64,000 nucleotides of DNA from a phage. Shown one piece after another: positions 36-20,204 of the stretch. Numbering within the stretch: position 1 is the first letter of the stretch; every line of letters starts with the position of its first letter. Below the pieces are notes generated by a model. It was not told the DNA's origin, did not search any database, and saw only the letters and a program-made list of their open reading frames with translations. The stretch lies in the NCBI GenBank assembly GCA_017864995.1, contig GCA_017864995.1_4097.1; one strand, 5' to 3'. Both the position numbers and the translations under genes were made by a program.

Positions 36-1202
36 TTATTGTAAAAAGGACATATCTACTTCTGTATAATTAAGAACGTTCTGTCCAGAAATACCACCCA
101 TTACTACTATTGCAAGGCCACAATAATATAATTTTCCAGTATCCGTAAGTATAAGTGATCCAGATGAACTGCGTACCAAATCACACGAACTATTAAAAGA
201 AGTATAAGAAGGAGTATAGGAGTACTGATTATTATTATTACCAACACCTAATTGCCCAAACCCATTCGATCCAGAAGCATATAGAACTTCATCTGCTTTG
301 ACAATATGTGATGCCATGTTACCAACACAAGTATATAGAGTATAAACTCCTGAACTCAATAATGTCGGAGTTTTATATTGTATATCTGTAGATGTAGAAG
401 TACCACCTGTACCAAATTCGTTCCCATATTGTGCACCGAACTGTTTACCACAAGCGTACAAATTATTATCCGATTTGATAAAAAATGTACTCTGATAACT
501 TACATTAAAATCTATAACATCCGAAGAAATCATCGTCACCCCAGTAATAGAAGTTTGATTACCCGTGCCCAACTGGTAGTAATAGTTAAAACCACAACCC
601 CATAAAGTATTATCTTCTCGCAAATAAATGTTACCAACTGCCTTTTTAACCGAAGTTATAGTATCTACTCTTTTGAATGTGTTAAAAGAATTAATGTTTG
701 TGCCATCACCAAATGATGATATGTTCGATATATTGTTAGTTCCACAACAATACAATGTACCATCGTTTGTTATCAAATTCACCTTCATATCATAAAAACT
801 ACTCATGTATTTTATATCAGAAACATTAATACCACTTGATGTTATCCACGTAGTACAGTCCGTCCACAAAGTTTTTCTATCAGTTACACCAGTGAATGCC
901 TTCGTGTTACCAGTGATAAAAACTTTTCCAGTACCTTTCTCTTCATACAATTGACAATCACTACTGTTATCTTCCAATAGAACTCGTTTAACATTCTCCG
1001 CACAAAGAATAAATTTACTCGATGTTACACCTGTACCAGTACCCCAATTCGCCGCAGAAGATGCATACAACTTATCAGTATAAGTATCATGAAGATACAT
1101 AGAATCACTGGAATATATTTTAAAACGCCCAGAGTTGGTAGGTGCTTCATTCCCATAATCAAACATTCTAACAAAAGGTAACATATTTCCTCCTTTATTC
1201 AT
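36..1202 (-). CDS. RCC1-like repeat (beta-propeller) protein
   Basis: 388-aa ORF, only convincing minus-strand gene; repeated LYACG/LWGCG/LYCCG/LYYCG and G-x-G-QLG-x-G units; alternative start M7 at 1184 preceded by AAAGGAGG. Confidence 0.6.
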   Translation of the reverse strand: MNKGGNMLPFVRMFDYGNEAPTNSGRFKIYSSDSMYLHDTYTDKLYASSAANWGTGTGVTSSKFILCAENVKRVLLEDNSSDCQLYEEKGTGKVFITGNTKAFTGVTDRKTLWTDCTTWITSSGINVSDIKYMSSFYDMKVNLITNDGTLYCCGTNNISNISSFGDGTNINSFNTFKRVDTITSVKKAVGNIYLREDNTLWGCGFNYYYQLGTGNQTSITGVTMISSDVIDFNVSYQSTFFIKSDNNLYACGKQFGAQYGNEFGTGGTSTSTDIQYKTPTLLSSGVYTLYTCVGNMASHIVKADEVLYASGSNGFGQLGVGNNNNQYSYTPSYTSFNSSCDLVRSSSGSLILTDTGKLYYCGLAIVVMGGISGQNVLNYTEVDMSFLQ

Positions 1203-6289: not shown

Positions 6290-8230
6290 TAGACAGGGGA
6301 AGCTCCGCAGGGAAAGCATTGGACAGGCTTTAACATATGTTATATATGTTAAAATTCAGCCTGGACAAATGCGATCACTAGGATTCTCCCCAGGCTAAAC
6401 CCCGTAATCATATGTAGTCATAAGTAATCATATATAAACATTTATATGAGCACCGTAGAATCACAGAATGATTATATATGATTCAGTACTGATTATTATA
6501 GACAAGATTACTCAAGAATGCTAGGGAAGGATTCAGTACTGCCCCAAAAGTATTCAGTACTGAAGGTGTCGATATGCCACTAAGTAGGCAGAGGAAGTCT
6601 GCCGTACTTTGTAGTTTCCAAGCTCCTTTTCCAATTTGCAAATTACATCAAATGTAATCAAAAGTAATCACGCAATGATTAGTACTGAATTATTACTTTC
6701 ACCTTAATTACAATTACCCTTTTACCCTTCGGGGTAAAATTCAATTACCCCTTGAGGCTCCAGCAAAAAGTTGGTTAGTACTCCATCCTAAATCTCGATC
6801 CTAAAAATTTTGGAGTACCTATGAAATAAAAGTTGGATCTTCGAAAGTTGAAATTTACGTTGGGACGTTTATGATTTGTGGGATATAATGATGTTTGTAG
6901 TCGGGTAGTTCTCAAGAATATCAGTACTGAAAGATGAAAGAAAGTTATTGACTTTATGATTCAGTACTGTATAATGTTCTACATAGGGTGATGAGTTGCT
7001 GCGAACAATTCATTTACTCTACCTCCTGTCGTGAGACAGTACAGAAAAGATAGTTCCTCCTGTGGTGGTGGTACATCTTTTTGAACCTCATATGAAAATC
7101 GTAATAACAGTACTGATATTAACAGAATGGTGTCAGTACTGATTTTAATCTAAAGCATTATGCCACCAGCTTGTGCTGGTGGATTCCCTCTAACAGTATT
7201 CAGTACTACATGATGGTCTTCATCCTCCTAGGGTAACATAGTGAGGGCTATGATGGCAGTACTGAATACTCCCTTTCAAAAGATAGATCTATGGTATAGT
7301 ACTGACGGATTTTGGGTGTAGTTACCCTGGATGGATTTTGGACGTAGATATGTCTAGCCCTCCAGAAGTCTGGAAGTAAAGATGGCTATCCATCTAGACG
7401 GCTAAACGGCTAGATTTCTGGATGGCTGGATGGCTAGACGTTTGGACGGCTAAACGGCTAGATGGTTACACGTCTGGAAGTATAGACGGCTAAATCAAAA
7501 TTTTATTTTGTTTTTTCCAATAGTTCCCCTACCGCGTGGGGATAGTTTCCCCGCAGTATCTGGTGTTAGATTTTTCTGAATCTGGAATCATTATCTTATA
7601 AACTGGGGGCAATGTCAACGACCTGGACGGATATTTTTAAAAATTTTTTCAGTACTGAATTTTGGGCGTAACTATGCACCCGGTGGGCTTGAGTCTTTCT
7701 CGACTTGATGGAACTATTATACAGTACTGAAAAAATAAAGCAATACCCTGGAAGCAAAAAAGTTTTAATTAATTTGCTTGCTATCCTGGGCCGGACTATG
7801 GTACTATATTTCAGTACTGAGAAAGTGCGTTTACCTGCTAGGGTGCGGGAGTGTATCCTTTTTTTATATCTTGAATTTTGGGCGTAATTCCGCACCCTCT
7901 GGGGTTTCCGCTTTCTCGCGTCTATGTAGTAATTATACGCTTTTTCAGGATCAAGTCAATACCTAAAAACAAAATAATTGAAAATAATTTAACGCGTTTA
8001 AACTGCCCGTAACGCCCTGGAATGATTGGAATGGTGCAAATGTATAGCTTAGGTGTACTAATGCGTTAGAATGCGTCTGAGGCCGTTTTACGGGGTATAG
8101 GGATGATTTAGTGGATTGATTCAGTACTGAATAATAGTACTACTATATAGAAAGATAGTTCCCCTGGATGGTTGCAGTACTGAATGATAGTTTCCCTATA
8201 TAGAAAGAAAACTATTTTAAAAGTATTTGT
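6290..8230. other. ~2 kb non-coding hub with dense palindromes and repeats
   Basis: no RBS-supported ORF; many CAGTACTG palindromes; hairpins incl. TTTTACCC-ttcg-GGGTAAAA at 6720-6739; track ORFs here rejected. Confidence 0.5.
7360..7500. repeat. iteron-like direct repeats (GGCTA core)
   Basis: about 8 copies of r-GA-y-GGCTA-r incl. ACGGCTAAACGGCTAGAT x2 and GTCTGGAAGTA-A/T-AGA-y-GGCTA x2. Confidence 0.5.
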
Positions 8231-12035: not shown

Positions 12036-12240
12036 GTACTGAATCATTTAATAGACGGATCTCGGCACCCGGTGGGTTAGTGACTGTTTCGTCTTGATGT
12101 AGTAATTATGCCAGTACTGGATGCACTTGTCAACAACTATTTTTCAAATACTTTTTATTAAAATACTTGCAATTAGTTTTTAAACGCGTATAATGTTTTG
12201 CATAGGGGGAGCGGTTCCCCTGGTAACTAAGGATAATCAA

Positions 12241-16897: not shown

Positions 16898-17110
16898 ATG
16901 GCTAATATCTGCACTGTACTGAAAAATGCAAAACAAGTTTTATTTTCTGATCACGATCATTTAAACAAGGATATTACTGGCGTTCGGAATATCAAAGATG
17001 TAAAAAGTGTTATGGGTATCTATTGCAATATGAAACGTGTTGGAACGTTCGGCGACAAAGTACTATACCAGGCAGGGGATTACAATTTTACACTGACTAT
17101 CATTAACTAA
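16898..17110 (+). CDS. hypothetical protein (70 aa)
   Basis: MANICTVLKNAK; promoter TTGACA-16-TATAAT plus hairpin upstream. Confidence 0.55.
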   Translation: MANICTVLKNAKQVLFSDHDHLNKDITGVRNIKDVKSVMGIYCNMKRVGTFGDKVLYQAGDYNFTLTIIN

Positions 17111-17193
17111 AAATATTATCACAGTACTATTGACATAGTTTGATAGTACTGACATAATAACTTTTATCAACTACACTACTAAGGAATTAAAAA

Positions 17194-17373
17194 ATGGCTA
17201 TCATCGCAAAAACTGAAATCGTTGGTCTGGATTCTATCATCATGACGTTTGAAGATCAAAAAGGTATGTATGTAGTTTCATATGGTGATTATGTTCGGGA
17301 GTATGAAACGGTAGACGAAGCCTTTGAAAGTTATATTCGCCAGGTGAATAAAGCATACGACGACTACCGCTAA
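17194..17373 (+). CDS. hypothetical protein (59 aa, below track cutoff)
   Basis: MAIIAKTEIVGLD; class II promoter upstream; RBS AAGGAA. Confidence 0.5.
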   Translation: MAIIAKTEIVGLDSIIMTFEDQKGMYVVSYGDYVREYETVDEAFESYIRQVNKAYDDYR

Positions 17374-17463
17374 AATATATTACCAGTACTATTGACAACG
17401 TTTGATAGTACTGTATAATAAGTTTTATAAACAGTAGTTAACTTAACCTAAGAGAGAAATAAA

Positions 17464-17607
17464 ATGATCGCACTGGATTCATTCATCGACGCAGTACTGG
17501 CAAAAACTGGCGAGGATCTGACCGCAGAACAATACGCGATGATCGAGCAATGTCAGCAAAACGGTAAATCGGTGAAAGATACTGTTAAGATTATCCGCAA
17601 GATGTAA
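17464..17607 (+). CDS. hypothetical protein (47 aa)
   Basis: MIALDSFIDAVLAK; class II promoter upstream; terminator downstream. Confidence 0.45.
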   Translation: MIALDSFIDAVLAKTGEDLTAEQYAMIEQCQQNGKSVKDTVKIIRKM

Positions 17608-17613
17608 TATTAT

Positions 17614-17643
17614 AGCCCACTGGTTAACGCTGGTGGGCTTTAA
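17614..17643 (+). terminator. terminator-like hairpin
   Basis: AGCCCAC-N12-GTGGGCT then TTTAATC; stem contains GCTGGTGG. Confidence 0.45.
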
Positions 17644-17706
17644 TCATTTACCCTATACAATGCCAGTACTCAACCGTTTATCTCGTTAGAATGCGTTACA
17701 GGACGT

Positions 17707-17919
17707 TTGACAATGATTAGCATGAAATCAGTACAAAAACAAATAGAAACATTATCAAAAATTAAACGTAAACAGTACTCGTTAGAATATACAATCAATG
17801 GTAACTATCATCTAATGAAAGAGAATAATTTCATTGTCATTGATGAATCATTGCAAGTTATTAGTATAGTACTGAAAGCATTAATCAATGACAGAAAAAA
17901 AATTAAAATAATCTATTGA
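17707..17919 (+). CDS. hypothetical protein (70 aa)
   Basis: ORF only; weak RBS and no clear promoter. Confidence 0.3.
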   Translation: MTMISMKSVQKQIETLSKIKRKQYSLEYTINGNYHLMKENNFIVIDESLQVISIVLKALINDRKKIKIIY

Positions 17920-18240
17920 CAATATCCTCCAGTACTGGCATAATACTTACATCAAGACGAGAACGTCACTAACCCATAGGGTGCACAAATGTAACTATAT
18001 AATATCGATCAATAAATGATCAAAAAAGTACTGGATCAATTTAGCATAAGGCGTATAATTCTGATCAATTCTTGATCAAAGGCAATATACGCAGTTGAAT
18101 TTATATAGACAGTACAAAGGCGTTACTATCCGTGGTAATGCTGGTGGATATGTAGTATCATGTGGTTTGAATAAGATTAGCACTAGTAGTATTATTGTAG
18201 CATTACAGTACTATAGTATTTTTATAATGAGGTTAAAATA

Positions 18241-18498
18241 ATGGCAGTAGGATACGCGAAAGACGGGGCCGAACAAGACGAGATTAACGCAGTGATTCAG
18301 GCAGCCGTTAACCACGCTAGAAAGCAAATTAACGCACAAAGAGAATCACTGGTACATTGCCTCGACTGCGGCGATAAAATCCCTGAGAATCGACGCCAGG
18401 CCGTTATAGGGTGCATGTATTGTATTACTTGCCAGGAGGATCATGATAGTACTTTTAAAAGAGATCCGCGTAATTGTTGGCATAGATCTATGAGATAA
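18241..18498 (+). CDS. TraR/DksA-family C4 zinc-finger protein
   Basis: RKQINAQ...CLDCGDKIPENRRQAVIGCMYCITCQ matches the TraR-type C-x2-C-G-x2-IPE-x-RR...C-x2-CQ pattern. Confidence 0.7.
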   Translation: MAVGYAKDGAEQDEINAVIQAAVNHARKQINAQRESLVHCLDCGDKIPENRRQAVIGCMYCITCQEDHDSTFKRDPRNCWHRSMR

Positions 18499-18505
18499 AA
18501 AGTAA

Positions 18506-18533
18506 TTGACAGTACTGAAAGATAGTGTATAAT
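18506..18533 (+). promoter_or_regulatory. promoter TTGACA-16-TATAAT
   Basis: AGTACTG in spacer; upstream of GNAT-like gene. Confidence 0.5.
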
Positions 18534-18562
18534 GTTTTATATCTTAACTGAGGATAGTAATC

Positions 18563-18919
18563 ATGGGAATACAACATATCACGCGTACTACTGACAATGG
18601 CGAGATCACTGGTTATCAGGTACAGGGCAAAGTAGCACAATTGCAGTACTGGTTTGTTAAACGTGGAATCATTGCACCGGATCTTGATTATGACCGTGTA
18701 GCGTTTATTGATTCTCTTTATGTTGATCCTGATAGTCGGGGCAATGGTGAAGGTAACGAATTAATGAATGCCTTTATTGATGCCGCCGATGATTCAGATT
18801 GTATCATCTTAGAATGCGATACGGGAGAAGATAACGCCTTTAATCTTAAAGAATGGTACGAAGGTTTCGGATTCGAGGTATTGATAGATAGTGAATATCC
18901 TATCATGATTTTATCATAG
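18563..18919 (+). CDS. putative GNAT-like acetyltransferase (small)
   Basis: LYVDPDSRGNGEGNELMNAFIDAA resembles GNAT motif A (R-x-x-G-x-G/A); weak call. Confidence 0.35.
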   Translation: MGIQHITRTTDNGEITGYQVQGKVAQLQYWFVKRGIIAPDLDYDRVAFIDSLYVDPDSRGNGEGNELMNAFIDAADDSDCIILECDTGEDNAFNLKEWYEGFGFEVLIDSEYPIMILS

Positions 18920-18996
18920 TACTTGCATTTAGTTTTCAGTACTGTTATAGTACTTGCATCAAGGGGAAATATCTTCCCCTACTAAGAGGAAATAAA

Positions 18997-19185
18997 ATGG
19001 AAAACTTATCAAGTATTTTAGTACAAGATGATTTCGGTAATCCTGGAAGTGCTATCATTGTTCGGGGCAATAAAGCAACGTTTGTTATTGCTGGTGGACC
19101 CGTACAGCGTAGCATTAAAAATAATGCTGTTACCATTAATAATGTACGCTATCGCTTAGATAAAGAATTAATTCATAAACTGTAA
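18997..19185 (+). CDS. hypothetical protein (62 aa)
   Basis: MENLSSILVQDD; promoter plus hairpin GGGGAAAT..TTCCCC upstream. Confidence 0.55.
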   Translation: MENLSSILVQDDFGNPGSAIIVRGNKATFVIAGGPVQRSIKNNAVTINNVRYRLDKELIHKL

Positions 19186-19270
19186 AAAAGTACTGGACAA
19201 TAGATTATAGTACTGTATAATAGTTTACATGAAGGGGAGAAATGATTCTCCCCACTAAGAGGAAAGAAAA

Positions 19271-19483
19271 ATGCAAGGTCAACTAATCGTTCGTAAATGG
19301 TCTGATACTAACGAAAAACCGTGGGATGTACAATACATCGCCCCCAATGGTGAATCCAGATATCAACCAGGTGTAACGCATAGTACTGAGCAATTCGCCG
19401 CCGCTCATCGCGAACGTCTGTTACAATCAATGCAGCAAGGTTCCGGTGAAAAATTCATTCAGGATCATTGGCTGAAAGATTAA
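19271..19483 (+). CDS. hypothetical protein (70 aa)
   Basis: MQGQLIVRKW; promoter plus hairpin upstream. Confidence 0.55.
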   Translation: MQGQLIVRKWSDTNEKPWDVQYIAPNGESRYQPGVTHSTEQFAAAHRERLLQSMQQGSGEKFIQDHWLKD

Positions 19484-19569
19484 AAAGTACTTGCACAGTA
19501 CTGAATAAAGTGTATAATGTTTTATATCGGAAGGGGAATAGTTCCCCTCCGAACAAAGAGGAAAGTATA

Positions 19570-19743
19570 ATGGTCCAGGTAGAATTAACAGTACTGAAAG
19601 ATCTGTTTTATCGGATTGGTACTACTGGCGAATATCCGAAGGGTGATAATGCAAAACTTTACGTATCACTCGACTTATGGCAACGCGAACAATTAGCAAC
19701 AGCCTGGCGTAAAGGCAAAGCAGATAGCGAGGTGAAAGCATGA
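19570..19743 (+). CDS. hypothetical protein (57 aa)
   Basis: start MVQVELTVLK after RBS AAAGAGGAAAG; track start 19468 lies in promoter. Confidence 0.5.
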   Translation: MVQVELTVLKDLFYRIGTTGEYPKGDNAKLYVSLDLWQREQLATAWRKGKADSEVKA

Positions 19744-19889
19744 AAGAATTCTTATTTGAAGTAGTGTTTCAAGGTGTCGGCAATAACCAACTGATTCGAT
19801 CAAGTGGTTATAATGTTAACCAGGCATGGAATAACATTAAACAAATGTACCCGAACGCTATCACATATCGCAACCCGAAAGAAGTTTAA
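19740..19889 (+). CDS. hypothetical protein (49 aa)
   Basis: MKEFLFEVVFQGVGNN; ATGA overlap with upstream stop. Confidence 0.4.
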   Translation: MKEFLFEVVFQGVGNNQLIRSSGYNVNQAWNNIKQMYPNAITYRNPKEV

Positions 19890-20204
19890 AAAATAATTGA
19901 AAAAGGGATTGACTCCGGTCAGTCCCTTTGCTATTATATACGCATAGAAACAAATCAGCCCACCGGGTGCATAAATGTATCTATTGTTTGCTGGTGGCTA
20001 GTACTGAAAACTATTTTTAAAAAGTACTTGCATTGTACTTATAATCAAGTATAATGTTTTACATCAGGACGGGGAACGAAATAAGTAACCCCGTTAAGTA
20101 GTCCAGGAGTAAGACATACGAAAAACTCCCCTGATAAAATAGTTTGACAATAGAAAGTAAACGAGTATAATACTTACATCAACCACTGATAAGGAAACAT
20201 AAAA

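Follow-up and report, generated by a model that had tools for sequence, protein, structure and literature searches.

What does a tight cluster of GATC sites do upstream of a DksA/TraR-like gene in this phage genome, and does it belong to that gene at all? The window analyzed here is the whole 64,000-nucleotide stretch of contig GCA_017864995.1_4097.1. Its source is an E. coli jumbo phage belonging to Asteriusvirus (121Q/PBECO4 group), and positions 17000-20000 of the window are 99% identical to phages WPEC5 and WPEC3. Within it, an array of five (T)GATCAA boxes (18004..18081, + strand) precedes a C4 zinc-finger gene of 85 amino acids (aa; 18241..18498, +), and a sequence-only reading had proposed a methylation-sensitive regulatory region linked to a polymerase-modulating factor. 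That reading overlooked a 48-aa open reading frame (ORF) with a TTG start lying between the two (18095..18241, +; phrog_38664), whose stop codon TAA overlaps the ATG of the zinc-finger gene. We found the array to be unique in the genome, conserved, and linked to this small gene, and its conservation indicates that the cluster is a real, selected regulatory feature. In our preferred interpretation, to which we assign a probability of roughly 45%, the boxes form an operator-like array over the promoter of a small cassette, probably bound by the cassette's own product, so that the cassette would be autoregulated and would co-regulate the zinc-finger gene.

The five clustered sites (GATC at 18007, 18018, 18034, 18063, and 18074) are located where the sequence-only reading had placed them, as is the TATAAT seen among them (18054-18059), and all five are GATCAA. 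Four of them form two pairs at 11-bp spacing (18007/18018 and 18063/18074), so that the two GATC of a pair lie within ~31 bp of each other and face the same side of the helix; one box coincides with a -35. The window contains 142 GATC sites in total. Of 1000 shuffles that preserved dinucleotides, 4 contained five GATC in 72 bp, as did 0.3% of the trials in which the 142 sites were placed uniformly; five GATCAA in 75 bp were obtained in 0/1000 shuffles and 0/200,000 uniform placements. The complete genome of the close relative TH47 (MT446416.1; 352,450 bp) carries 581 GATC, or 1.65 per kb, with an observed/expected ratio of 0.51, and the local density of 5 in 72 bp is above this background. The array locus is the sole instance of at least four GATC within 80 bp in the window, in the whole TH47 genome, and in the first 150 kb of 121Q.

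We surveyed 39 boxes from 12 lineages, with 27 neighbour spacings. The GATC core is invariant (39/39), and variation is confined to the flanks, where T is found at -1 in 36/39 boxes, A at +1 in 33/39, and A at +2 in 30/39, against a background of about one-third per position. TTGATC or GATCAA was present in 36/39 boxes (92%) versus 114/576 genomic GATC sites (20%), and the spacing between neighbours was exactly 11 bp in 17/27 cases. It should be noted that the lineages are related and the box counts are therefore not independent events; the synonymous sites in the same loci are near saturation. An extended, partly palindromic motif, phased at one helical turn and lying over core promoter elements, has the look of an operator for a sequence-specific protein. 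Since Dam and SeqA require GATC only, the conserved flanks point to such a protein rather than to Dam or SeqA alone.

The comparison with relatives showed that the boxes follow the small gene and not the zinc-finger gene. In Erwinia phage Hallingskeid and five related metagenomic contigs, an upstream promoter and the conserved element CTAACCCACAGGGTGCA are followed by two (T)TGATCAA pairs, each spaced exactly 11 bp, that bracket a TTGAC(T/A)-17-AATAAT promoter, with boxes at -80, -69, -37, and -26 from the start codon. In these six loci, neither the four boxes nor the -35 and -10 vary; the spacer between them does, and the gene after the small gene is not DksA-like. In Asteriusvirus clade 2 (PBECO4, BF17, SHEFM2K, and Salmonella phages), four boxes, upstream of and at the -35, are retained though the flanking sequence is only 60-70% identical, and the two downstream boxes are gone. 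In five more distant homologs (L051, L052, L054, L056, and L057), TTGATCAA-type boxes again overlap the -10 or the -35.

The converse case is provided by phage phAPEC6, which keeps the zinc-finger gene and lacks the entire ~330 bp that in the window lie between two copies of the 10-bp direct repeat TTAAAATAAT (left copy, 17903..17912, +; right copy, 18233..18242, +; defined from the sequence and the phAPEC6 alignment). The missing segment comprises a promoter, a leader element, the boxes, and the small gene. In phAPEC6 the stop codon of the equivalent of the upstream 70-aa gene directly overlaps the start of the DksA-like gene. The full region is present in 27 of the records matching the query, and several Asteriusvirus records match its first ~100 bp only; one of the latter, ph0011, still has its annotated DksA-type gene. 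Boxes and small gene co-occur, and both are absent from phAPEC6; the array and the small gene therefore form one mobile cassette, with the zinc-finger gene as a neighbour. The regulatory part of the earlier proposal was thus partly right and tied to the wrong gene: the cluster brackets the promoter of the 48-aa gene, the Erwinia relatives have no DksA-like gene there, phAPEC6 has no cluster, and the link to the zinc-finger gene is incidental, not conserved.

The presence or absence of a promoter and its ORF as a unit between close relatives, with short bounding repeats, is also what characterizes the T4-type PeSL cassettes (PMC2839356, PMC4122927), which likewise consist of small early ORFs with their own strong promoter and 5' stem-loop. 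The difference is that Asteriusvirus is not T4-type, its consensus sequences are others, and the cassette described here has an extra leader element and the GATC boxes.

The 48-aa ORF is a genuine gene under purifying selection. Between the two Asteriusvirus clades its DNA is 60-70% identical and the changes are mostly synonymous or conservative (dN/dS 0.13-0.30); in the Erwinia-phage group, pS is 0.49-0.79 versus a pN of 0.06-0.16, and the other reading frames at the locus are full of stops. The product matches phrog_38664 (E 3e-32), as does a 60-aa protein of Hallingskeid (E 6e-7). Homologs were found in other jumbo-phage-like contigs, in eight clusters by a word-indexed search with 15 more, of 47-74 aa, by an exhaustive HMMER search, and they share the pattern LKQYxxVxL..G..YxV..GRxKxxT....AL..Y; a search in IMG/VR returned 121Q only. 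One homolog, of 49 aa and unannotated in GenBank, lies in the terminal repeat of Pectobacterium phage CBB (451-600 of L058), where it is preceded by an ordinary AGTACT-type promoter and no GATC boxes.

Of the 48 residues of the protein, 6 are basic and none is acidic, for a net charge of +6. An AlphaFold2 model built from eight sequences (pLDDT 88.9) predicts four beta-strands and then a C-terminal helix; this antiparallel sheet on a helix can be superposed on AP2, as expected for an AP2/ERF-type fold, and also resembles the integrase arm-binding beta-sheet domains; DNA-binding domains of these types also occur fused to phage HNH endonucleases. The predicted fold is the sole link of the small protein to a DNA-binding fold. 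Together with the charge, it gives the protein the look of a nucleic-acid binder, and DNA binding is a reasonable inference. The small protein differs from the AP2/ERF domains in standing alone at 48 aa; none of 20 family members (0/20) matched Pfam AP2 at E <= 10, and a Foldseek search of the model against the Protein Data Bank (PDB) returned nothing and did not recover the similarity. No NCBIfam match was found for the small protein, and matches to Rrf2/IscR wings were discarded as weak (E 0.01-0.08, far under the cut-offs).

In the reading that we favour, the cassette, located in the early, long-terminal-repeat region, is organized as a strong promoter (P1), a conserved leader element, a putative second promoter decorated with boxes (P2), and the 48-aa gene. 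A sequence-specific DNA-binding protein would occupy the boxes, which are phased one helical turn apart, and the most economical candidate is the cassette's own very basic protein with its predicted sheet and helix. Because the boxes overlap the -35, the -10, or the start site, binding would shut the promoter, a case of negative autoregulation. The cassette supplies the nearest promoters upstream of the zinc-finger gene in the window phage, and the two genes overlap at TAATG, an arrangement for translational coupling. The array therefore probably gates zinc-finger expression too, and in this phage lineage the same shut-off would limit expression of the zinc-finger protein. With GATC at the core of every box, the binding could also be modulated by Dam methylation, whether from the host or the phage. 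Which protein binds the boxes, and in which direction it regulates, is inferred here. The small gene, lying directly 3' of a promoter with repeated, partly palindromic boxes over the -35, -10, or +1, is like the autoregulators of the Cro and Arc/Mnt types in this respect. The candidate differs from these in that its predicted four-stranded sheet and helix is neither a helix-turn-helix nor a ribbon-helix-helix, in that some family members have no boxes, and in that it is a putative binder.

Several observations weigh against this reading. Boxes are missing from the promoters of three distant homologs (L053, L055, and Pectobacterium phage CBB), so they are not universal in the family. A beta-meander with a helix is also a simple topology, no Pfam family was matched by any member, the family profile matches no PDB sequence, and the Foldseek neighbours in BFVD are all uncharacterised phage proteins. 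The -35 of P2 is weak in the window (TGGATC), and a consensus scan did not call P2 because this hexamer matches at only 3/6 positions. Finally, the box sequence is constant across small proteins that are only 31-38% identical. A regulator and operator that co-evolve would not quite be expected to give this pattern, which is the one predicted for a host factor that reads GATC.

That last point leads to a promoter controlled by Dam and SeqA, an explanation that we consider unlikely, if still deserving serious attention. On this view the phased GATC sites would arrive fully methylated with the injected DNA and become hemi- or unmethylated once it replicates, and their state would set promoter activity through host SeqA or altered RNA polymerase contacts and thereby time the small and TraR-like genes, without a dedicated phage binder. 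The invariant GATC core would follow directly, as would a box sequence that is unchanged across very divergent small proteins. The 11-bp spacing places paired sites on one helical face, and SeqA is said, after Brendler and Austin, to need just this. The hosts of the box-bearing phages are Escherichia, Salmonella, and Erwinia, and Enterobacterales are Dam+ and SeqA+. An overlap of boxes with the -35 is seen in the window, in PBECO4, and in L057, and in the Erwinia group the -10 is flanked by boxes. The Asteriusvirus Sharanji is reported to have an N6-adenine methyltransferase (PMC11895373). This explanation does not account for the conserved flanks, with TTGATC or GATCAA so much more frequent in boxes than in genomic GATC sites, or for the strict co-inheritance of the boxes with one small gene. 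Pectobacterium phage CBB, whose host is Dam+, has a homolog without boxes. Phage DNA is moreover not always methylated by Dam, with ~50% methylation in lambda and none in T5/BF23 (PMC10644984). Restriction digests of fEgEco12 say nothing direct on GATC methylation, as no enzyme listed recognises GATC itself.

Known Dam-sensitive promoters (IS10 pIN, P1 cre, Mu mom/OxyR, pap/Lrp, std/HdfR, dnaA P2/SeqA) are like the array in having GATC in or beside core promoter elements, pairs on one helical face, and an enterobacterial Dam host. The array differs in its longer common motif, TGATCAA, and in two 11-bp pairs that bracket the promoter of a tiny phage gene. Several of these promoters have a sequence-specific protein that competes with Dam, as HdfR does at its sites in std (PMC6735912). 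Binding by the cassette's own protein and a role for Dam are not exclusive, as the affinity of a box binder could depend on adenine methylation.

It is improbable, to our mind, that the boxes are bound by some other factor, such as a different phage early regulator or a host protein, or that they form an origin-like or unwinding element activated by transcription from promoter P1. The stretch is AT-rich (G+C ~0.30) and lies directly 3' of this strong promoter, and iterated GATC heptamers at about one-turn spacing resemble the origin repeats of oriC and P1 oriR. Five unrelated IMG/VR contigs, some of 50-61% G+C, carry long tandem arrays of GATCAA units (~11-20 bp each) that are non-coding and iteron-like. 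TH47 has one other box-like pair, the sole one in that genome (26415-26431, GGATCAATTTTTGATCAATAAT, GATC 11 bp apart), which by its offset is outside the window and is a possible second target of the box binder. Scanning IMG/VR for the box quartet gave 121Q itself, collagen-like coding repeats (GSKGDQG), and unrelated iteron arrays, and no further cassette. A replication origin of the oriC or P1 oriR type in particular is unlikely: no DnaA box (TTWTNCACA) was found within 10 kb of the array (9 matches in the window versus 12 expected, none near 18 kb), the cumulative GC skew of TH47 has no inflection at the locus, and divergent lineages place the boxes precisely with respect to the -35 and -10. 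Furthermore, the element is dispensable in natural isolates such as phAPEC6 and the Asteriusvirus records that match in part, which disfavours an essential origin. Compared by eye with the consensus sequences, the boxes do not fit IHF, FNR, or DnaA sites in spacing or bases.

A long shot is the stronger proposal that the cassette encodes a new family of ~50-residue beta-sheet DNA readers, in which phased TGATCAA boxes would be read depending on the methylation of the GATC adenine, a TraR/YbiI-like factor would be timed by injected versus replicated DNA, and the reader might also act on host sites rich in GATC, oriC being an example. That the array is functionless, arising where an 11-bp unit of the AT-rich promoter DNA was locally duplicated or from TTGATC serving as a -35-like hexamer and carried along with the cassette, would fit the 4/6 match of TTGATC to the -35 consensus, its position at the -35 in PBECO4 and L057, and the relatedness of the lineages counted, and is nevertheless very improbable given boxes invariant where non-coding neighbours and synonymous sites have diverged by 50-79%, an arrangement that varies by group and always overlaps core promoter elements, and GATC sites counter-selected genome-wide yet concentrated here.

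The TGATCAA-box cassette and its protein family appear to be undescribed in the literature searched. The zinc-finger gene is ordinary, phage TraR/DksA homologs being known to redirect host transcription; what is new is the GATC cluster as a conserved cis-element that goes with a so far unstudied group of tiny early proteins of Rak2-like jumbo phages. Should the protein prove to bind the boxes, the pair would be a minimal new DNA-binding module with its operator and a handle on the shut-off of early genes in the 21-kb terminal repeat. It would also offer a natural test case for Dam gating of phage early promoters, through the comparison of isolates that have the cassette, such as 121Q and fEgEco12, with those that lack it, such as phAPEC6 and Sharanji. 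The finding further shows that cassettes of this kind move about ahead of conserved genes and thereby change how these are controlled.

The zinc-finger gene itself belongs to the TraR/DksA C4 family, as the sequence-only reading had recognized. Its motif, C40-LD-C43-GDKIPENRRQAVIGCMY-C61-IT-C64-Q, corresponds to CxxC-N17-CxxC with an extra C58, and the profile match passes the Pfam gathering cut-off for zf-dskA_traR (PF01258; 36.9 bits versus 24.9, residues 39-68). The ORF also matches phrog_54 (E 5.7e-19). The best PDB match is E. coli YbiI (2KGO; phmmer E 5e-12, residues 1-69, ~43% identity by hand count), followed by TraR (5W1S, 6N57; E 7e-6), in an alignment that starts only at residue 18. 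YbiI is also the best-scoring NCBIfam family, though the cut-off of its equivalog NF008243 was not reached (79.8 versus 96), so the protein is YbiI-like and not an equivalog. The TraR cut-offs were likewise missed (TIGR02419, 49.1 versus 59.7; NF010268, 31.4 versus 108). This family assignment is already known, as related phages annotate a DksA-like protein or a TraR/DksA zinc finger.

The protein has the same finger as YbiI, TraR, and lambda Orf73, DksA-family proteins of the RNA polymerase secondary channel, and is like them in size (~73-88 aa) and in an N-terminal helix with acidic residues; like the genes for lambda Orf73 and P2 Orf82 (PMC9239242), its gene is located among early small phage ORFs. 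It differs from YbiI and TraR in the extra C58 and in a 17-residue basic C-terminal tail. The tip is also different. In TraR and lambda Orf73, the aspartates of the N-terminal DxxDxA motif are required for the inhibition of rrnB P1 (PMC9239242); the window protein has D8-G-A-E11-Q-D13, an acidic pair at the same spacing with D/E instead of D/D and D replacing A. TraR-like activity is therefore plausible but not assured. YbiI at a high level rescues dksA auxotrophy (PMC2613031). The G+C content of the zinc-finger gene (~0.49, versus 0.35 for the phage) suggests a horizontal origin. A recent capture from E. coli was rejected, as no nucleotide match was found in 5,426 E. coli genomes; any transfer was not recent or not from E. 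coli.

The remaining features of the unit are as follows. Upstream of the cassette lies a small early gene of 70 aa (17707..17919, +; phrog_36844). Promoter P1 (17916..17944, +) is of the sigma-70 type, TTGACA-17 nt-CATAAT, with 11/12 consensus matches and a TG before the -10, and is conserved in the Asteriusvirus alignment. The putative promoter P2 of the small gene (18032..18059, +), supported by the repeat family and the alignments, has box 3 as its -35 (TGGATC), followed by 16 nt and TATAAT; its equivalents are TTGATC-16-TATAAT in the clade-2 relatives and TTGAC(T/A)-17-AATAAT in the Erwinia group. Boxes 4 and 5 form a perfect 7-3-7 palindrome, TGATCAATTCTTGATCA (18062..18078, assigned to neither strand), at about +3 to +19 of P2. 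An RNA hairpin at this palindrome was rejected, as its stability is not above that of shuffles (z = -0.76) and it is absent from relatives. The downstream end of the unit is marked by a promoter of perfect consensus, TTGACA-16 nt-TATAAT (18506..18533, +), that belongs to the next gene after the zinc-finger gene, a GNAT acetyltransferase gene (18563-18919). In Hallingskeid (214-642 of L009), an HNH endonuclease gene is located immediately 5' of the cassette, and two of the related contigs (L012 and L014) have a 196-aa gene of unrelated length there.

The promoter-proximal leader element in the upstream part of the cassette (17966..17998, +; core CTAACCCATAGGGTGCA) is a dispersed one, invariant in the Erwinia-phage group. 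Its consensus, CTAaCCCAyMGGGTGCa and then GTAtCTAt, has at least nine copies in the window, at 7675(-), 10086(+), 10146(-), 12064(-), 16299(+), 17969(+), 19955(+), 23227(+), and 25976(+), and 0/100 shuffles reach 8. Each copy lies ~25 nt 3' of a strong sigma-70-type promoter, with a short hairpin in front of it, and the hairpin stems covary from copy to copy; a terminator follows the element in phage RaK2 and at 12064(-). Conserved across Asteriusvirus, Alcyoneusvirus, and Erwinia phages and without a match in Rfam, the element has the look of a family of short RNAs or leaders close to promoters.

The locus as a whole lies in a region of early character. In phage vB_Ec-M-J the homologous position is ~12 kb into an annotated direct terminal repeat of 21.5 kb, and terminal repeats of ~20-21 kb are reported for fEgEco12 and Sharanji (PMC11895373). 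From 14 to 24 kb, the window consists of tightly packed, very small genes, nearly all with their own strong sigma-70-type promoter, a 5' stem-loop, and a ribosome-binding site. An Rfam scan of this segment gave a single sub-threshold chance match, elsewhere than at the array locus. The tetranucleotide GCGC is absent from the 64-kb window (46-56 expected) and from the 352-kb TH47 genome (~170-200 expected), in which GCG and CGC each occur more than 1000 times; other G+C palindromes in this comparison are only at 0.36-0.43 of expectation, and the absence of GCGC suggests selection by a GCGC-specific nuclease, either host or phage-encoded. By contrast, GTAC is 2.2-fold over-represented genome-wide. 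Between 14000 and 24000, AGTACT motifs flank the -35 and the -10 of the small-gene promoters (AGTACTTGCA...AGTACTGTATAAT), and downstream of these AGTACT-type promoters the 5' hairpin GGGGAGAAATGATTCTCCCC is followed by the ribosome-binding site. In several promoters of the same segment, the -35 is embedded in a terminator-like hairpin (GGGATTGACTCCGGTCAGTCCC and then TTTGCTATTAT).

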